Positions 5,462 to 64,000 of a DNA stretch of 64,000 bases are shown in pieces. Numbering within the stretch: position 1 is the first letter of the stretch; each line of letters begins with the position of its first letter. Source of the stretch: Escherichia coli (lineage in GTDB: Bacteria > Pseudomonadota > Gammaproteobacteria > Enterobacterales > Enterobacteriaceae); NCBI RefSeq assembly GCF_050920415.1, contig NZ_CP169309.1. One strand, written 5' to 3'. A program made the translations under genes and the position numbers. The notes below the pieces were generated by a model. That model searched no databases and was not told where the DNA came from. It saw nothing but the letters and a program-made list of their open reading frames with translations.

Positions 5462-6886
5462 ATGACCAAAAAACTCCATATTAAAACCTGGGGCTGTCAG
5501 ATGAACGAGTACGATTCATCGAAGATGGCCGATCTGCTGGATGCCACCCACGGCTATCAACTGACCGACGTGGCGGAAGAAGCGGATGTGCTGCTGCTGA
5601 ACACCTGCTCAATCCGCGAGAAGGCTCAGGAAAAAGTCTTCCATCAGTTGGGTCGCTGGAAACTGTTAAAAGAGAAGAATCCAGACCTGATTATCGGCGT
5701 CGGCGGCTGCGTGGCATCGCAAGAAGGCGAGCACATTCGCCAGCGCGCCCACTATGTTGATATTATTTTTGGGCCGCAAACACTGCACCGTCTGCCGGAG
5801 ATGATCAACTCCGTACGCGGCGACCGCAGCCCGGTTGTAGATATCAGCTTCCCGGAAATCGAGAAGTTTGACCGTCTGCCGGAACCGCGTGCCGAAGGAC
5901 CAACCGCGTTTGTCTCCATCATGGAAGGCTGCAATAAATATTGCACCTACTGTGTGGTGCCTTACACCCGTGGTGAAGAGGTAAGCCGTCCTTCCGACGA
6001 TATTCTGTTTGAGATTGCCCAGCTTGCGGCTCAGGGCGTGCGTGAAGTCAACCTGCTCGGTCAGAACGTGAACGCCTGGCGTGGTGAGAACTACGACGGC
6101 ACCACCGGATCGTTTGCCGATCTGCTGCGTCTGGTTGCGGCGATCGACGGGATCGATCGTATTCGCTTTACCACCAGCCATCCGATCGAATTCACCGACG
6201 ATATCATCGAAGTGTACCGCGACACGCCGGAGCTGGTGAGCTTCCTGCATCTGCCGGTTCAGAGCGGTTCCGATCGCATTCTAAACCTGATGGGACGTAC
6301 CCACACGGCGCTGGAGTACAAAGCGATCATCCGTAAATTGCGTGCGGCGCGTCCTGATATTCAGATCAGTTCTGACTTCATTGTCGGCTTCCCGGGCGAA
6401 ACCACCGAAGACTTCGAAAAAACGATGAAGCTGATTGCCGACGTCAATTTCGACATGAGCTACAGCTTTATCTTCTCCGCTCGTCCGGGTACACCAGCCG
6501 CCGATATGGTTGATGATGTTCCGGAAGAAGAGAAGAAGCAGCGTCTGTATATTCTGCAAGAGCGCATTAATCAGCAAGCGATGGCATGGAGCCGCCGTAT
6601 GCTCGGCACCACCCAGCGTATTCTGGTAGAAGGTACATCGCGTAAGAGCATCATGGAGCTTTCCGGTCGTACTGAAAATAACCGCGTGGTTAACTTCGAA
6701 GGCACGCCGGATATGATCGGTAAATTCGTCGATGTAGAAATTACCGACGTCTATCCGAACTCTCTGCGCGGTAAAGTGGTGCGAACTGAAGATGAAATGG
6801 GTCTGCGCGTGGCAGAAACACCGGAATCGGTGATTGCCCGTACCCGCAAAGAAAATGACCTGGGCGTGGGTTATTATCAGCCGTAA
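5462..6886 (+). CDS. miaB: tRNA-i6A37 methylthiotransferase (radical SAM)
   Basis: 474 aa; CxxxCxxC radical-SAM cluster (CNKYCTYC) and C-terminal TRAM region. Confidence 0.95.
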
Positions 6887-55668: not shown

Positions 55669-55810
55669 TCCCATCTGCACAAGCGACAACTCGCTTTGCC
55701 CAGAGGATGCACTCGCATCCTCTTTCCGCTCAAATATCAACCAGATTTATCATTTTGCTCTTAAGCACAGCATTCTAATCTGAACTGGTTATTCATCTGC
55801 GGAACCCCAT

Positions 55811-55900
55811 ATGAGCGAAGCTCTCAGTATCACTGCGTTTTATATATTCATAGCAGCTATTATTGTTGCTGCAGTGCTATACCTTGAACAACGCTGGTAG
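55811..55900 (+). CDS. Possible 29-aa hydrophobic mini-protein (speculative)
   Basis: ATG...TAG ORF encoding MSEALSITAFYIFIAAIIVAAVLYLEQRW, one predicted TM helix; no convincing Shine-Dalgarno. Confidence 0.2.
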   Translation: MSEALSITAFYIFIAAIIVAAVLYLEQRW

Positions 55901-56023
55901 TACCTGGTTTTATTTATTTTCCAGATCAATCGCAAATTCAGATCGAATCAGCCTCGCAAATCATAGATTCATAATCAATAATGTGCTGTTATGTATACAT
56001 GCAAAAACAAGGAGAGAATGCTT

Positions 56024-56573: not shown

Positions 56574-58139
56574 TTATGCTGTTTTGGTGCGAATCAGGTA
56601 GTCAAAAGCACTCAGAGAGGCTTTGGCACCTTCGCCAGTGGCGATGATGATCTGCTTGTACGGAACCGTCGTACAGTCACCCGCTGCGAACACGCCTTTG
56701 ACGTTGGTTTCGCATTTCGCATCAATGATAATCTCGCCCATGCGGTTACGTTCGACTGCGCCTTCGAGCCAGTTGGTGTTCGGCAGCAGACCAATCTGGA
56801 CAAAAATACCGGCCAGTTTGATGTTGTGAATATCGCCGCTGACACGATCGCGATATTCCAGACCAACAACTTTGCTGCCGTCGCCTTTCACTTCCGTGGT
56901 TTGCGCATTCAGAATAATGTCGACGTTTTTCAGGCTGCGCAGTTTGTCCTGCAGAACCTGGTCGGCTTTCATTTCTGGCGCAAATTCCAGCAGAGTTACG
57001 TGTTCAACGATACCCGCCAGGTCGATTGCCGCTTCCACGCCGGAGTTACCACCGCCGATAACCGCTACGCGTTTGCCTTTAAACAGCGGGCCGTCGCAGT
57101 GCGGGCAGTAGGTCACGCCTTTGGTACGATACTGATCTTCTCCCGGAACATTCATGTTGCGCCATTTTGCACCGGTCGCCACTATAATGCTGCGTGCTTT
57201 CAGTACCGCGCCAGAAGCTGTTTCAATCTGATGCAGGCCACCTTCAACCGCTGCCGGAATCAGTTTGCTGGCGCTCTGGCTGTCGATCACATCAACGTCG
57301 TATTCATCAACATGAACTTTCAGTGCACCTGCCAGTTTTTGGCCTTCGGTCTTCGGTACAGAAATGTAGTTTTCGATATCAACGGTATCGAGGATCTGAC
57401 CACCAAAACGTTCACCCATCAAACCGGTACGGATGCCTTTACGTGCGGAGTAAATTGCTGCCGCTGCACCCGCCGGGCCGGAACCAACGATTAATACGTC
57501 ATAAGCATCACGCTTGTTCAGCTCTTCTGCCGCACGTTTTTCCGCGCCAGTATCAATTTTGGCGACGATTTCGGAAATAGTCATGCGGCCCTGACCAAAC
57601 TCTTTCCCGTTTACGAACACTGCCGGAACGCCCATCACGTTGCGATCGGTGATTTCGTTCTGGAAGGTGCCGCCGTCAATTGCCGTATGCTTGATGCGCG
57701 GGTTCAGTACGCTCATCAGGTTCAGCGCCTGCACCACGTCCGGGCAGTTATGGCAAGAGAGCGAGTAATAGGTTTCGAATTCAAAATCACCGTCAATATG
57801 GCGAATCTGCTCCAGCAAAGACTGCGCTTCTTTTGACGGATGACCACCGGTCCACAACAACGCCAGTACCAGCGAGGTGAACTCGTGGCCCATCGGGGAA
57901 CCTGCAAAACGTGGCCCCTGGTTGGAACCTGGGTTAGTGATCAGGAAAGACGGCTTACGCACCGGCAAGCTGTTATCTTCTTTAAAGGTGACTTTGTCTG
58001 ACAGTTCTGCGATTTCAGCCAACAGTTCCTTGATTTCTGCCGATTTAGCGCTGTCATCCAGCGTGGCAATTAACTCAACAGGCTTGGTCAATTTCTCAAG
58101 GTAAGCCTTGAGTTGAGTTTTCATATTTGTGTCGAGCAT
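56574..58139 (-). CDS. ahpF: Alkyl hydroperoxide reductase subunit F
   Basis: 521 aa from [13 protein letters not shown]; CxxC redox centres (CHNC, CPHC); FAD/NAD GxGxxG motifs. Confidence 0.95.
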
Positions 58140-58309
58140 GTTTATCTCCTGGGCTTTAAACATCATCATGCAAGCGGCCTCTGCGGCTACCTGGATGCAG
58201 CTTGCATCATGGTGCGGGGAAGAAAATCGGGTGCCGCAGCACCCGATTAATTAGGTGAATTTCCGAACTATTTCGCGCCGGAGTTGGTAGCGCGAAAGAC
58301 AAAGGAAAT

Positions 58310-58873
58310 TTAGATTTTACCAACCAGGTCCAGAGACGGAGCCAGAGTTGCTTCACCTTCTTTCCATTTAGCCGGGCAAACTTCACCTGGGTGAGAAGCT
58401 ACGTACTGTGCTGCTTTGATTTTACGCAGCAGGTCAGACGCGTCACGGCCAATGCCTTCAGCGGTAACTTCGATTGCCTGGATGATACCCTGCGGGTCAA
58501 CAACGAAGGTTGCACGGTCAGCCAGACCTTCATCTTCACGCATGTTGTCGAAGTTACGGGTCAGGGCGCCAGTCGGGTCGCCGATCATCGCATATTTGAT
58601 TTTAGCGATAGTTTCAGAGCTGCTGTGCCATGCTTTGTGGGTGAAGTGAGTATCGGTAGATACTGCGTATACATCTACGCCCAGTTTCTGCAGTTCTTCG
58701 TAGTGGTCAGCAACGTCACCCAGTTCGGTCGGGCATACGAAAGTAAAGTCAGCCGGGTAGAAGAAGAAGACGCTCCAGCGGCCTTCGGTATCTTTTTCGG
58801 TGATTTCGATGAATTCGCCGTTTTTGAATGCCTGGTTTTTAAAAGGTTTAATTTTGGTGTTAATCAAGGACAT
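58310..58873 (-). CDS. ahpC: Alkyl hydroperoxide reductase subunit C (peroxiredoxin)
   Basis: 187 aa; peroxidatic FTFVCPTE motif and resolving C-terminal Cys. Confidence 0.96.
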
Positions 58874-59245
58874 CTATACTTCCTCCGTGTTTTCGATGAG
58901 ATGTAAGGTAACCAATTTTTGCCGATTCGGCTAATGCGTTTCCATTATCAAATCGATAAGTTTTACCTTACAACCGTCGTAAGACAACTTTGTGAACTTT
59001 GCACCGCCAGTGGCGATAAAAAGTAAAATGGGCCCCCTTTCCAGGTGACCGTGTAATCTGAACTACCCTTTGGTATCTTCAGCGCCTGCCTGCAGGCTGT
59101 GGTGTTGCCCTTACAAATGCAACAACGACATGGATTACAACACCCTCATAAACAAAGGGCAATCACCTGATCTAAGCTCTTACCTATGACAGTGATAGGT
59201 TATGCCTTTTACTCCATTTTTGCACTGACTGAAAAGGACAAATTA

Positions 59246-59992
59246 ATGTTAAAAAAGATACTTTTACTGGCTCTGCTTCCTACAATCGCCTTTGCAGAGG
59301 AACTTCCTGCTCCGGTAAAAGCGATTGAAAAACAGGGCATTAAGATCATCAAAACGTTCGATGCCCCCGGCGGAATGAAAGGTTATCTCGGCAAGTATCA
59401 GGATATGGGCGTCACCATCTACCTGACTCCAGATGGTAAGCACGCTATCTCTGGTTACATGTACAACGAGAAAGGTGAAAACCTGAGTAACATGCTTATC
59501 GAAAAAGAAATTTATGCGCCAGCCGGACGCGAAATGTGGCAACGGATGGAACAATCGCACTGGCTCCTCGACGGTAAAAAAGACGCGCCAGTCATAGTCT
59601 ACGTTTTCGCCGATCCGTTCTGCCCATATTGTAAACAGTTCTGGCAGCAGGCGCGCCCGTGGGTTGATTCTGGCAAAGTACAGTTGAGAACATTGTTGGT
59701 TGGGGTTATCAAACCAGAAAGTCCGGCGACAGCCGCGGCAATTCTGGCCTCTAAAGATCCCGCAAAAACCTGGCAAGAATATGAAGCCTCTGGCGGCAAA
59801 CTTAAGCTAAATGTGCCTACAAACGTAAGTGCAGAGCAAATGAAAGTGTTAAGCGACAACGAGAAACTCATGGACGATCTGGGGGCAAATGTCACACCGG
59901 CTATCTATTACATGAGTAAGGAAAATACGCTGCAACAGGCCGTGGGGTTGCCCGATCAGAAAACGCTTAATATCATCATGAGAAATAAATAG
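59246..59992 (+). CDS. dsbG: Periplasmic thiol:disulfide interchange protein DsbG
   Basis: 248 aa from [17 protein letters not shown]; CPYC active site; divergent from ahpC. Confidence 0.93.
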
Positions 59993-60199
59993 AAGGTAAT
60001 TCATGGGTGGTTGAAATACATTCTTGCTTTTCAACCATTCTAAAAACGCATGAATTGCTTCTTCCCCTCCTGACAACTGTGTTACTTTAGAAAAACTTAA
60101 TCCAGAGTTAAGTAATAAAACATAACAAATATAAATAAAACAGTAGAATCATTGATTGCAAGAATGATTTATGGAAAAGATAATATAACGGAGTATGTT

Positions 60200-61102
60200 A
60201 TGGCTAATCTTTATGATTTAAAAAAATTCGACCTCAATTTACTGGTCATATTTGAGTGCATTTATCAACACCTCAGCATTAGCAAAGCAGCAGAATCATT
60301 ATATATAACGCCATCTGCCGTTAGTCAGTCGTTACAACGTTTACGCGTGCAATTTAATGACCCGTTATTCATCCGCTCAGGGAAAGGTATCGCGCCGACT
60401 ACAACAGGGTTAAATCTGCATCACCATCTTGAGAAAAATCTCCGAGGCCTTGAACAAACGATCAATATCGTTAATAAGTCTGAGCTGAAGAAAAATTTTA
60501 TTATCTACGGTCCTCAGCTTATTTCTTGTAGTAATAACAACATGCTAATCCGCTGTCTAAGACAAGATACTTCAATCGATATAGAATGCCATGACATACT
60601 GCTTTCAGCTGAAAACGCTGAAGAATTGTTAGTTCAACGCAAAGCTGACCTGGCAATTACACTGCAACCAGTAATTAGCCGCTCTGTCATCTGCATGCCG
60701 GTACATACTATTCGCAATTCTCTTATATGTAGCAACAAACATCCTCGTATTACCGATACCAGTAACTATGAACAAATTATCGCCGAAGAATTCACCTTGT
60801 TGATATCTAAATCAGCAGGGATTGACGAAATTCAAATGGACATAGATGAACGTTTTATGAACCGTAAAGTTTCATTTCGCAGTTCTTCTTTGTTGACGAT
60901 AATTAATAGTATTTCTGTTACTGACTTATTGGGCATTGTGCCCACCGAACTGTACGATTTACATCGTGATTTTTTGAAGTTACAAGAGATAAAACTGGAA
61001 CGACCACTTCCTACGGTTAAACTTTATATTTCCTATAACAAGGCTTCGTTGAACAACCTTGTCTTCTCACGATTCATAGATCGTTTAAATGATAGCTTCT
61101 GA
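60200..61102 (+). CDS. ybdO: LysR-family transcriptional regulator (AT-rich)
   Basis: 300 aa from MANLYDLKKFDLNLL; LysR HTH closely matching ybeF. Confidence 0.88.
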   Translation: MANLYDLKKFDLNLLVIFECIYQHLSISKAAESLYITPSAVSQSLQRLRVQFNDPLFIRSGKGIAPTTTGLNLHHHLEKNLRGLEQTINIVNKSELKKNFIIYGPQLISCSNNNMLIRCLRQDTSIDIECHDILLSAENAEELLVQRKADLAITLQPVISRSVICMPVHTIRNSLICSNKHPRITDTSNYEQIIAEEFTLLISKSAGIDEIQMDIDERFMNRKVSFRSSSLLTIINSISVTDLLGIVPTELYDLHRDFLKLQEIKLERPLPTVKLYISYNKASLNNLVFSRFIDRLNDSF

Positions 61103-61248
61103 TTTATTACCACGGATAAATGTTATATTACGCATCAATTGATTCATTGTGTGAATATAAAATAATGTGCTCTATCTTGCTTCGTTTACCCTATAATTAG
61201 CGGATTCATCTCACAAGTCACCCAGTAACGTTCAGAGAGCGTTTTCAG

Positions 61249-62469
61249 ATGTCTATTTATAAAATCCCTCTTCCGCTGAATATTTTAGAAGCTGCACAGG
61301 AACGTATTACCTGGACACTTAACACCTTGCCCCGTGTTTGCGTTTCTTTTTCGGGGGGTAAAGATTCCGGATTAATGCTGCATCTTACCGCCGAACTTGC
61401 CAGAAAATTGGGAAAAAAAATCTGCGTTTTGTTTATCGACTGGGAAGCACAGTTCTCTTGTACCATCGACTATGTACAGTCGTTACGCGAGTTGTATACC
61501 GACGTTATTGAAGAGTTTTACTGGGTAGCACTCCCACTCAAGACGCAAAATTCCCTTTCACAATACCAACCAGAATGGCAGTGCTGGGAATCTGATGTCG
61601 AATGGGTGCGTCAGCCCCCGCAAGAAGCGATAACCGATCCTGACTTTTTCTCCTTTTACCAGCCAGGCATGACCTTCGAACAATTTGTACGTGAGTTTGC
61701 CGAATGGTTTTCACAAAAACGTCCGGCGGCGATGATGATCGGCATCCGTGCGGATGAGTCCTACAACCGTTTTGTCGCCATCGCCAGTTTAAATAAACAA
61801 CGTTTTGCCGATGATAAGCCCTGGACCACAGCCGCACCAGGCGGTCACTGCTGGTACATTTACCCCATCTACGACTGGAAAGTAGCTGATATCTGGACCT
61901 GGTATGCTAATCATAAATCCCTATGTAACCCATTGTATAATATCATGTATCAGGCAGGCGTTCCCCTGCGTCATATGCGAATTTGCGAACCTTTTGGCCC
62001 GGAGCAACGGCAAGGATTATGGCTCTATCACGTTATCGAACCGGATCGCTGGGCTGCTATGTGCGCACGAGTTAGCGGGGTAAAAAGTGGCGGCATTTAC
62101 GCCGGACATGACAATCATTTTTATGGTCATCGGAAAATCCTCAAACCAGAGCATTTAGACTGGCAAGAGTATGCATTATTGCTGCTTGATAGCATGCCGG
62201 AGAAAACGGCTGAGCATTACCGCAACAAAATTGCCATTTACTTGCATTGGTATCAGAAAAAAGGTATCGAGGTGCCACAGACCCAGGACGGGGACATTGG
62301 CGCGAAAGATATCCCCTCCTGGCGGCGAATTTGCAAGGTGTTACTGAATAACGATTACTGGTGTCGGGCATTATCATTTAGCCCAACCAAAGCGAAGAAT
62401 TATCAGCGTTATAACGAACGGATAAAAGTAAAACGTCAGGAGTGGGGAATACTATGCAACAACAATTAA
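61249..62469 (+). CDS. ybdN: PAPS-reductase-like (PP-loop ATP pyrophosphatase fold) protein, IbrA-like
   Basis: 406 aa; SFSGGKDS PP-loop motif. Confidence 0.88.
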   Translation: MSIYKIPLPLNILEAAQERITWTLNTLPRVCVSFSGGKDSGLMLHLTAELARKLGKKICVLFIDWEAQFSCTIDYVQSLRELYTDVIEEFYWVALPLKTQNSLSQYQPEWQCWESDVEWVRQPPQEAITDPDFFSFYQPGMTFEQFVREFAEWFSQKRPAAMMIGIRADESYNRFVAIASLNKQRFADDKPWTTAAPGGHCWYIYPIYDWKVADIWTWYANHKSLCNPLYNIMYQAGVPLRHMRICEPFGPEQRQGLWLYHVIEPDRWAAMCARVSGVKSGGIYAGHDNHFYGHRKILKPEHLDWQEYALLLLDSMPEKTAEHYRNKIAIYLHWYQKKGIEVPQTQDGDIGAKDIPSWRRICKVLLNNDYWCRALSFSPTKAKNYQRYNERIKVKRQEWGILCNNN

Positions 62470-63071
62470 CGCAGGATTTAACCCAATTTCTCGCCAGCTT
62501 GCCGGAAGACGATCGCATCAAAGCGATTAACGAAATCCGCCTGGCGATCCATCAGGTTAGCCCCTTTCGTGAAGAGCCAGTAGATTGTGTTCTGTGGGTT
62601 AAAAACAGCCAACTTATGCCAAATGATTACAACCCAAACAATGTGGCACCGCCCGAGAAAAAACTGTTACAAAAATCCATTGAGATAGATGGTTTTACCC
62701 AACCTATTGTGGTCACGCACACAGATAAAAATGCTCTGGAAATCGTGGATGGCTTTCACCGTCATGAAATTGGTAAAGGCTCTAACACGTTAAAAATGCG
62801 ATTAAAAGGATATTTACCGGTCACCTGTCTGGAAGGAACACGTAACGAACGCATCGCCGCGACTATTCGTCATAACCGCGCTCGTGGACGCCACCAAATC
62901 ACAGCCATGTCAGAAATCGTTCGTGAACTCAGCCAGTTAGGATGGGACGACAATAAAATCGGCAAAGAGCTGGGTATGGACAGCGACGAAGTGTTGCGCC
63001 TGAAACAAATTAACGGCCTGCAAGAGTTATTTGCTGACCGTCAATATTCCCGCGCCTGGACAGTAAAATAA
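62442..63071 (+). CDS. ybdM: ParB/sulfiredoxin-like nuclease-domain protein, IbrB-like
   Basis: 209 aa; overlaps the ybdN 3' end (GTG at 62442, alternative ATG at 62454). Confidence 0.85.
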   Translation: MGNTMQQQLTQDLTQFLASLPEDDRIKAINEIRLAIHQVSPFREEPVDCVLWVKNSQLMPNDYNPNNVAPPEKKLLQKSIEIDGFTQPIVVTHTDKNALEIVDGFHRHEIGKGSNTLKMRLKGYLPVTCLEGTRNERIAATIRHNRARGRHQITAMSEIVRELSQLGWDDNKIGKELGMDSDEVLRLKQINGLQELFADRQYSRAWTVK

Positions 63072-64000
63072 TTACAGCTGGCGCAGGCGTTCAGCTGCCG
63101 CCAGCAACGTCGATTCCTTCTTGGCAAAACAGAGACGAATGAGCTTATGGGGGAAGGGATCGGCGCAAAATACCGACAGCGGGATCGCCGCCACGCCATG
63201 CTCCCGCGTCAGCCTCTGGCAAAACTCAACGTCATCCAGCGAAGAAACCGCGCTGTAATCCACCAGCAAAAAGTAAGTGCCTTCGCACGGTAAAATCTCC
63301 AGCCGACTCTCACTTAAGGCATTCACCAGAATATCGCGCTTCTGGCGATAAAAGTCCGGTAACGCAAGGTAGTGTTCAGGTTCTGCTCGCAGCATATCGG
63401 CAAGGGCCAGCTGCGCCGGGGTATTCACCGAAAAAGTCAGATACTGATGCACTTTGCGGATCTCGGCGCTGATGGGCGCAGGCGCAACGCAATAGCCCAC
63501 TTTCCAGCCGGTCATATGATAGGTCTTGCCAAACGATGACACCGCCACCGCCCGCTCACGCAGTTGCGGATGCGCCAGCACACTGGCATGGTCCTGCTGT
63601 GAAAAGTTGATATGCTCGTAAACTTCATCGCTAATGACAAAAATCTCGTGCCCGGCAATTGCCTGCCACAAAGCGGAAAAATCAGTCTGCTGCCAGACAG
63701 TAGCACTGGGGTTATGCGGGGTGTTAAGGATCACCAGTCGGGTGCGCTCGCTTAACAATGCGGCAAATTCCTGCCAGTCCACGCGAAAATGCGGTGGTTG
63801 CAGTGCAATACGTTTCACTATTCCACCCGCAAGCGTGATGGCGGGGGCGTAACTGTCATAGCTGGGATCAAAGCAAATCACTTCATCGCCATTGCGCACC
63901 AATGCAGTAATCGCTGCGTACAGCGCTTCCGTCGCCCCTGCTGTTACGGTGATATCGCTGTCGGCATCTGGTTGATAGCCATACAGCCGTTCCGTTTTCT
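63072..64000 (-). CDS. ybdL: PLP-dependent aminotransferase (methionine aminotransferase), C-terminal part; 5' end lies beyond the window
   Basis: Frame stays open to the window edge on the minus strand; class I aminotransferase-like sequence. Confidence 0.88.
   Translation of the reverse strand, partial: KTERLYGYQPDADSDITVTAGATEALYAAITALVRNGDEVICFDPSYDSYAPAITLAGGIVKRIALQPPHFRVDWQEFAALLSERTRLVILNTPHNPSATVWQQTDFSALWQAIAGHEIFVISDEVYEHINFSQQDHASVLAHPQLRERAVAVSSFGKTYHMTGWKVGYCVAPAPISAEIRKVHQYLTFSVNTPAQLALADMLRAEPEHYLALPDFYRQKRDILVNALSESRLEILPCEGTYFLLVDYSAVSSLDDVEFCQRLTREHGVAAIPLSVFCADPFPHKLIRLCFAKKESTLLAAAERLRQL

Follow-up and report, generated by a model that had tools for sequence, protein, structure and literature searches.

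The ybdN-ybdM pair of Escherichia coli is a probable chromosomal copy of a widespread IbrA/IbrB-family module and may couple a PP-loop enzyme to a ParB-like protein

Organization of the citR-ybdN-ybdM locus

The stretch of Escherichia coli DNA analysed here (64,000 nucleotides (nt) of contig NZ_CP169309.1, hereafter the window) carries the genes citR (ybdO), ybdN and ybdM, which encode a LysR-type repressor, a protein with the PP-loop of ATP pyrophosphatases and a ParB-like protein, respectively, the last two genes being phage-like in origin. According to the data presented below, ybdN-ybdM (ybdNM) appears to be the form in which enterobacteria have fixed, in their chromosome, a widespread two-gene module of the IbrA/IbrB family; elsewhere this module resides mainly on phages, plasmids and genomic islands. 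The locus as such is already annotated and known from the literature, and the original prediction, made for it from the letters of the window, was sound but restated known annotation. New points are the quantified near-universal synteny of the pair, the finding that no cysteine is conserved, the affinity of YbdN to adenylyltransferases, the helix-turn-helix (HTH) of YbdM, the SNF2-type partner and the paralogous pairs in virulence islands.

The map of open reading frames (ORFs) shows the three genes on the same (+) strand at 60152-63071, exactly as predicted except for the start of ybdO. The longest ORF of this gene runs from TTG 60152 to 61102. Since citR as annotated by RefSeq has 903 nt and the match to the NCBIfam CitR model begins at residue 17, its real start is probably ATG 60200. 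For ybdM two starts were compared. The annotated gene extends from GTG 62442 to 63071, and this GTG has no ribosome-binding site. ATG 62454 is preceded by AGGAG and yields a protein of 205 amino acids (aa), equal in length to the Citrobacter YbdM orthologues, and for these two reasons it is the more likely start. The predicted overlap of ybdM with the 3′ end of ybdN was found with either start: ybdM begins 28 nt (GTG) or 16 nt (ATG) before the end of the ybdN stop codon, which by its geometry would imply translational coupling of the two genes. Coordinates of all features are collected in Table 1.

Gene order in the 56.5-64 kb part of the window is ahpF-ahpC-dsbG-citR(ybdO)-ybdN-ybdM-ybdL. The 3.3 kb around the locus are 100% identical to the chromosome of E. 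coli MFDS1022581, and the locus was detected in 5422 of 5426 complete E. coli genomes with a median of one copy per genome. An Rfam scan of both strands at 58800-64000 matched no RNA family.

Table 1. Features of the citR-ybdN-ybdM locus (positions in the window)
Feature	Position	Strand	Signals and domains
dsbG-citR intergenic region, AT-rich citR/ybdO promoter and leader	59993-60199	+	GC 0.31-0.37
citR (ybdO), LysR-type repressor, 300 aa (probable start)	60200-61102	+	HTH_1, LysR_substrate, CitR equivalog
citR-ybdN intergenic region, candidate ybdNM promoter/operator	61103-61248	+	palindrome and TATAAT
ybdN, PP-loop ATP pyrophosphatase/adenylyltransferase-like, 406 aa	61249-62469	+	PAPS_reduct 61336-61950; PP-loop 61345-61368; helical DUF3440 61957-62397
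ybdM, ParB/sulfiredoxin fold and C-terminal HTH (more likely start)	62454-63071	+	DGFHR 62748-62762; RHNRARG 62868-62888; HTH ~62898-63029
ybdN/ybdM overlap	62454-62469	+	AGGAG 62439-62443; ATG 62454; ybdN stop TAA 62467-62469

Domains and relatives of YbdN

The phosphoadenosine phosphosulfate (PAPS) reductase domain, originally proposed for YbdN from its motif SFSGGKDS, was found by Pfam at residues 30-234 (PAPS_reduct, 9e-14), with the motif itself at residues 33-40 and the domain DUF3440 at residues 237-383 (4e-23). The SGGKDS core of the PP-loop is canonical and invariant in the family alignment, and YbdN has both marks of the PP-loop ATP pyrophosphatase/PAPS-reductase-like superfamily, SGGxDS and the fold of adenine-nucleotide alpha-hydrolases.

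Searches with single sequences found no solved relatives of either YbdN or YbdM, and profiles reached relatives at the superfamily level only. For YbdN the closest of them, by profile and by fold, were two adenylyltransferases: CysD, the small subunit of ATP sulfurylase, and the PAPS domain of eukaryotic FAD synthase, an FMN adenylyltransferase. They have the canonical PP-loop in common with YbdN but only 18-21% identity over ~165 residues, and neither possesses the extra helical domain of ~170 aa and the obligate ParB-like partner that distinguish YbdN. Both CysD and FAD synthase transfer AMP from ATP to an oxyanion, and by analogy one can assume a similar chemistry for YbdN. Models of CysH, DndC, CysD and BrxP all matched it partially and far under their cut-offs.

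No conserved cysteine or metal site was detected in the alignments of the YbdN or YbdM family. The best column contains 83% Cys, with Ala in E. coli, and combinations of cysteines differ from sequence to sequence across the family. Since no Cys is conserved, both a DndC-like cysteine/iron-sulfur site and a CysH-like catalytic Cys are argued against.

ParB-like fold of YbdM

For YbdM, predicted to be a ParB/sulfiredoxin-like protein, the Pfam match to ParB_N is weak (3.4e-4), but it is backed by the match to the phage family phrog_2159, named 'ParB-like' (2e-69), and by the profile of the YbdM family, which retrieves Noc and ParB. The YbdM model also matches KorB, Spo0J and PadC, the HTH included. 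Both superfamily features, the ParB N-terminal fold and the G-x-x-R nucleotide-binding motif, are present, and the arrangement of an N-terminal ParB/sulfiredoxin (ParB/Srx) nucleotide-binding fold followed by an HTH resembles KorB, VirB, Noc, Spo0J/ParB and DpdB. Domain searches recovered, therefore, the two folds, PP-loop and ParB, with which the original prediction stands or falls.

The only NCBIfam match of YbdM at E <= 0.01 was nucleoid_noc (20.8 bits vs a cut-off of 315). PADLOC reported a ParB-like region of type II methyltransferases (0.0024), and the ParB domains of YbdM-like proteins have further matches in phage families designated DNA methyltransferase (phrog_498, 8.8e-10). YbdM is the more conserved partner, with 44-52% identity between E. 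coli and phage or Firmicute members vs ~30-35% for YbdN, and its motifs NPN, DG.HR and RHNRARG.H are invariant, the last one being specific for the family. No ParA gene was seen beside YbdM in the loci examined. A precedent for YbdM is provided by DpdB, a ParB-like ATPase that assists a DNA-modifying enzyme in the Dpd 7-deazaguanine system (PMC12839542).

Pairing and distribution of the module

The family consists of ~1690 clusters at 50% identity, and the survey of its loci (L-numbers below), in which one genome per species was taken, comprised 80 loci. They span Proteobacteria (Enterobacteriaceae and Alphaproteobacteria), Bacteroidota, Firmicutes, Verrucomicrobiota, Actinobacteria (one locus), Campylobacterota (Helicobacter) and one Heimdallarchaeote. 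Of these loci, 79 have a YbdM-like ORF on the strand of the YbdN-like gene, 77 of them directly downstream and 2 upstream of it, and in the single locus without it the contig stops 40 nt past the YbdN-like gene. In the 77 downstream cases the genes typically overlap by 4-28 nt or are separated by a gap of <=15 nt. The synteny on which the original prediction relied is thus nearly universal in the survey. The distance matrix of one protein correlates with that of the other (r 0.71, Mantel p <= 0.001), which shows co-inheritance and not interaction, because shared ancestry alone would produce such a correlation.

All four phages inspected contain the pair, two of them in the order PAPS-reductase-like then ParB-like and two in the reversed order. 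Its phage neighbours are helicases, a methyltransferase, a pair of ParB-like and queuine tRNA-ribosyltransferase genes and a terminase. The latter pair was seen in Fusobacterium phage phiFN37 (L002, 9748-11033), where a second ParB-like gene followed by the queuine tRNA-ribosyltransferase gene lies ~3 kb downstream of the IbrAB-like pair and resembles the DpdB/DpdA 7-deazaguanine pair. The suggestion that the module always resides on phages was rejected: distant loci are mixed, with one clear prophage (L034), one probable prophage (L064) and others chromosomal or unclear.

Clustering of neighbouring ORFs revealed two recurrent neighbours outside Enterobacteriaceae, one of which forms a third gene of the module in some lineages. 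This gene, for a SNF2-related/Helicase_C protein of ~415 aa (phrog_62), immediately precedes the YbdN-like gene on the same strand in 15 loci of four phyla (L028, L029, L034, L035, L038, L039, L042, L049, L053, L055, L058, L064, L065, L082 and L086), and Streptococcus phage CHPC1148 has a member of the same SNF2/Helicase_C family upstream of its ibrA (L001, 3758-4996). With the helicase the module thus comprises three genes. In 17 loci, mostly of Bacteroidota (L037, L040, L041, L044, L045, L047, L051, L052, L057, L059, L060, L063, L067, L069-L071 and L082), a conserved protein of ~137 aa is encoded directly upstream of the pair, ~400 nt before the YbdN-like gene; it has no significant match in Pfam or PHROG, only a faint GNAT hint (E 0.17). 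No desulfurase, Dnd, Ssp or BREX component, nuclease, toxin, sensor or restriction partner was recurrent among the neighbours in the 80 loci.

Relation to IbrA/IbrB and paralogous pairs

The proposed homology to IbrA/IbrB was confirmed on annotated proteins. YbdN is 35% identical to IbrA of Streptococcus phage CHPC1148 over 94% of its length (E 3e-74), phage proteins annotated as IbrA/IbrB match both YbdN and YbdM, and a second E. coli pair is 58% identical to both of them. IbrA and IbrB of the IbrAB island of E. coli ECOR-9 (RAST/SEED 'co-activators of prophage gene expression') have the same architecture as ybdNM, in which the gene for a PAPS-reductase-like protein with DUF3440 overlaps the ParB-like gene that follows it; homology was established here with proteins that databases name IbrA/IbrB. 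In published work IbrAB is cited as the pair of founding homologues. Unlike IbrA/IbrB, ybdNM belongs to the core genome, where it occupies a fixed site and has a LysR repressor of its own. No published report of prophage or acquired genes being activated by ybdNM was found.

E. coli also has extra, diverged copies; 8088 places were counted over 5420 genomes, with a maximum of five in one genome and with 118 of the places on plasmids, and YbdM-like genes are present on 767 plasmids. The extra copies of E. coli and Klebsiella (L087-L091 and L093) belong to islands and virulence plasmids, where their neighbours are fimbrial operons with PapI/PapB, PerC-family regulators, an S6 autotransporter protease, surface-polysaccharide genes of yaiO/yaiP type and siderophore loci; in the Klebsiella virulence plasmid inspected the pair sits between the fec and iro loci. 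On the Shigella flexneri plasmid p2013C-3749-2 (L092) the ParB-like gene (5932-6570) is annotated as intact, with insertion sequences at the place of the PP-loop partner. This would be a rare unpaired YbdM-like gene, although the gene table of the plasmid is incomplete and the partner may be unlisted.

Regulation and allelic divergence of the locus

YbdO gave Pfam matches to HTH_1 (8e-18) and LysR_substrate (5e-10), and scored 454.5 bits against the NCBIfam CitR equivalog NF047710 (cut-off 400), which makes it CitR. CitR is a published repressor of ybdNM: a ChIP-exo peak (chromatin immunoprecipitation combined with exonuclease digestion) is situated upstream of citR-ybdNM, and deletion of citR strongly raises ybdN and ybdM (table values 5.5 and 2.5) and raises cit, cys and flagellar genes as well (PMC9068703). 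This repression was not mentioned in the original prediction. H-NS in turn binds and represses ybdO, which is one of the H-NS-bound genes that diverge fastest. Mapping in K-12, SE11 and SE15 located its H-NS-dependent upstream and downstream elements and placed the transcription start 107 nt ahead of the start codon (PMC4720273). In some E. coli strains IS1 is inserted inside the LysR gene, and RefSeq contains split LysR fragments; such strains are natural candidates for de-repressed ybdNM.

The original prediction described ybdO and its upstream region as strongly AT-rich, in keeping with a horizontally acquired locus silenced by H-NS. The AT-richness is real: guanine-cytosine (GC) content of 0.31-0.40 was found over 59850-61350, that is for citR and its two flanking intergenic regions only, whereas ybdN and ybdM have 0.42-0.50 and neighbouring genes ~0.50-0.57. 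Silencing of ybdO by H-NS agrees with the published data cited above, but since E. coli, Citrobacter, Enterobacter and Kluyvera all have the locus at one fixed place in the chromosome, any acquisition must have been ancient. Only 9 of the 80 loci, all of them enterobacterial sequence, contain the LysR gene next to the pair, and the ahpF-like and ybdL-like flanks recur there, so that the chromosomal ybdNM copy is old and vertically inherited. YbdN 96% identical to that of E. coli, together with citR, was also present on a 2.5-kb contig (L007, CAUHML010000335.1) binned as 'uncultured Bacteroides sp.', which is almost certainly an E. coli contig mis-binned into a metagenome-assembled genome.

The allele in the window is rare: only 14 of 5422 genomes are >=99% identical to it across the locus. 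Compared with the O157 allele, identity falls to 75-77% over 60500-61400 while flanking genes show 96-99% (ahpC 99%), and for citR as a whole it is 79% in DNA and 88% in protein. Synonymous divergence (dS) between the alleles is ~2 for citR, 0.36-0.46 for ybdNM and 0.02-0.14 for ahpCF. The ratio of non-synonymous to synonymous divergence (dN/dS) lies at 0.035-0.084 for citR, ybdN and ybdM, with 0.035 for citR at its dS of ~2 and 0.04-0.06 for ybdNM; over the alleles compared, citR alone spans 0.035-0.084. Such low values for ybdNM despite the dS of 0.36-0.46 indicate functional rather than decaying genes, and the alleles are ancient lineages of functional genes under purifying selection. The divergence of citR in the window fits the published hyper-diversification of the H-NS-bound ybdO.

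The spacer between citR and ybdN contains, as read from its sequence, a perfect inverted repeat ATTCA-N5-TGAAT (61142-61156), which corresponds to the LysR pattern T-N11-A, and downstream of it a perfect TATAAT (61192-61197). The ATTC..GAAT half-sites and TATAAT are retained in the divergent O157 and ST648 alleles. We propose this palindrome as a candidate operator through which CitR may control ybdNM. The published prediction places the CitR site upstream of citR. The inverted-repeat search, run with a seed of 6, missed the palindrome with its 5-nt arms and returned only an AT-rich pair. In the scan for promoter and terminator consensus, which included the dsbG-citR intergenic region, matches were no commoner than in shuffled sequence, and footprinting of the citR-ybdN spacer across genera gave no alignment outside Escherichia.

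Possible mode of action of YbdN and YbdM

Based on the folds and contexts described, one can assume that the pair probably acts on DNA. In the scheme that we put forward tentatively, as a real possibility that falls somewhat short of an even chance, YbdM binds DNA, and the coupled YbdN splits ATP and adenylylates a target on or near the DNA, independently of sulfur, which alters expression of acquired genes. YbdM, as a protein of ParB/KorB type with a nucleotide-binding ParB/Srx domain and HTH, would find DNA or load onto it. YbdN, an obligate partner made in fixed proportion to YbdM by means of translational coupling, would form a complex with it and, being a member of the CysD/FAD-synthase branch, would split ATP into AMP and pyrophosphate with its intact PP-loop. 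The adenylyl group might then be transferred to an oxygen or phosphate, either of the nucleic acid or of a nucleotide bound by YbdM, to give either a sulfur-independent covalent mark or an activated intermediate. In some lineages a SNF2-type helicase or motor would join the pair. The presumed consequence is altered expression of horizontally acquired DNA or its relief from silencing; IbrAB of the ECOR-9 island reportedly switches on the eib adhesin genes of prophages. In phages the same activity could protect or license the phage DNA. In E. coli the neighbouring LysR repressor CitR keeps the operon switched off, and the AT-rich citR gene is in turn silenced by H-NS. We infer this scheme from the affinity of YbdN to CysD and FAD synthase, the precedents of DpdB and ParB-methyltransferase proteins, the gene contexts and the title of the report on IbrAB (Sandt, Hopper and Hill 2002, J Bacteriol 184:3640). 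Established are the identities of the genes, their folds and motifs, the pairing, the purifying selection and, from the literature, the regulation; the complex, DNA as its substrate, the adenylylation and the outcome for expression belong to the proposed scheme.

Several observations weigh against it. In alignments to Noc and ParB, YbdM has DGFHR where ParB CTPases carry GERR, and on comparison of motifs box II (GERRxR) of the CTPase clamps ParB, Noc, KorB and VirB is missing from YbdM, GFHR standing in place of GERR. Among 150 family representatives there was no convincing natural fusion of ParB with the PAPS-reductase-like protein; the 281-aa chimera P0363 was rejected since it looks like an assembly or frameshift artefact. 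In the searchable literature neither a biochemical or genetic test of YbdN or YbdM nor a mechanistic paper was found, the only match being a Keio screen for ybdM. To our knowledge, no DNA modification is attributable to ybdNM in E. coli, where the operon is normally silent.

The main rival explanation, which we hold to be rather unlikely but serious, does without covalent modification of DNA. YbdM/IbrB would be an anti-silencing regulator similar to VirB or KorB, which by nucleotide-dependent binding to and spreading on DNA turns on acquired genes silenced by H-NS, and YbdN an accessory that supplies or regenerates its ligand or remodels YbdM. It is favoured by the reported activation of prophage eib genes by IbrAB, by the position of paralogous pairs next to PapI/PapB and PerC regulators and adhesin operons, and by the increase in expression of flagellar genes upon citR deletion, which also de-represses ybdNM (PMC9068703). 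Nevertheless, a PP-loop enzyme of 400 aa with an invariant catalytic loop is kept as strictly as its DNA-binding partner (79 of 80 loci); lytic and temperate phages of Firmicutes, Bacteroidota and Actinobacteria carry the pair beside replication and packaging genes; and a SNF2 gene recurs as the third one. Taken together, this exceeds what a simple regulator needs.

The adenylylation scheme can also be carried further, to a speculation that we consider doubtful. The pair would then be an undescribed sulfur-independent machine for DNA modification, composed of a ParB-like loader, a PP-loop adenylyltransferase and sometimes a SNF2 motor, that sets a mark via an adenylylated intermediate. Such a machine would protect or license phage DNA and would have become in enterobacteria an epigenetic switch relieving silencing of adhesin, capsule, flagellar and prophage genes.

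Action on RNA instead of DNA appears improbable. YbdN would in this case adenylylate a base of tRNA or rRNA in the manner of TilS, TtuA, MnmA or ThiI, with YbdM as a specificity or regulatory subunit; but its closest relatives are CysD, FAD synthase and CysH rather than tRNA enzymes, there is no conserved Cys for thiolation, YbdM with its ParB fold and HTH is a DNA-binding type of partner, and a SNF2 helicase is the product of the third gene.

Stand-alone anti-phage defence, or counter-defence when the pair is carried by a phage, with nucleotide depletion or nicking of DNA by the ParB-like 'nuclease' as its means, is a poor candidate too. The module does reside on mobile elements, ParB/Srx proteins are able to nick DNA (cited in PMC12839542), and PAPS-reductase and ParBc proteins figure in a 2026 preprint as candidate effectors tied to nucleoid-protein sensors. 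On the other hand, PADLOC gave no family-level match, only the partial ones to DndC, BrxP and the methyltransferase ParB region; the pair is fixed in the core of 5422 of 5426 E. coli genomes, not part of a variable defence island, and is under steady purifying selection; and recurrent toxins, sensors or restriction partners are absent.

Somewhat less probable still is phosphorothioation of the Dnd, Ssp or BREX type 4 kind, with YbdN as a sulfur inserter like DndC, SspD or BrxP and YbdM as a regulator like DndB. Dnd systems pair the same two superfamilies, and all these systems place a PP-loop enzyme of the PAPS-reductase superfamily beside a partner of the ParB superfamily or another DNA-binding protein. 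The resemblance claimed by the original prediction held at this superfamily level only, since every test of membership in Dnd, Ssp or BREX failed and ybdNM is far below the family cut-offs. YbdN gave weak partial matches to DndC in PADLOC (2.4e-5) and NCBIfam (TIGR03183, 1.1e-4) and to BrxP (4.6e-5), but the NCBIfam match reached 21.3 bits vs a cut-off of 290.4 and covered residues 145-223 only, and the BrxP match reached 19.8 bits over residues 29-102 only, with dsbG, ahpCF and ybdL as neighbours. YbdM has no match to DndB or the DGQHR family. DndC possesses a characteristic cysteine dyad (PMC12839542), whereas no Cys is conserved in either family here; and neither cysteine desulfurase nor dndA/B/D/E, SspB/C or restriction genes were recurrent in the 80 loci or found in the window.

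Finally, a genuine role of YbdN in sulfate assimilation, suggested by its RefSeq product name, the Pfam PAPS_reduct match and the activation of cys regulon genes in the citR mutant (PMC9068703), is close to excluded: CysH models score 35 bits vs 154 (NF002537) and 34.7 vs 254 (TIGR02057), the C-terminal catalytic Cys needed by CysH has no counterpart, the intact ATP-type PP-loop, DUF3440 and obligate ParB partner are unlike CysH, and E. coli already has cysH. The RefSeq name 'phosphoadenosine phosphosulfate reductase' is almost certainly a label derived from the domain and wrong as a function.

Both ybdN and ybdM count among the uncharacterised genes of E. coli, and the same module is spread over many phyla, phages and virulence plasmids of Klebsiella, Shigella and E. 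coli. The range of possibilities is now narrower: sulfur chemistry of the Dnd type is unlikely, and the pair is as obligate as a two-subunit enzyme. Action of IbrAB type on DNA or expression is directly testable in K-12 by de-repression of a single operon. A new DNA mark or anti-silencing mechanism, if true, would bear on the conflict between phages and hosts and on regulation of virulence genes.

Other differences in the vicinity of the locus

Two further differences were registered upstream of the locus on comparison with other genomes. Relative to O157:H7, the strain of the window lacks ~1.6 kb holding ybdR between yldA and uspG (~55725-56006), and ST648 lacks the same segment. In the ahpC-ahpF intergenic region (58101-58400) identity to both comparison genomes is ~85%, while the flanking coding sequences retain 97-99%.

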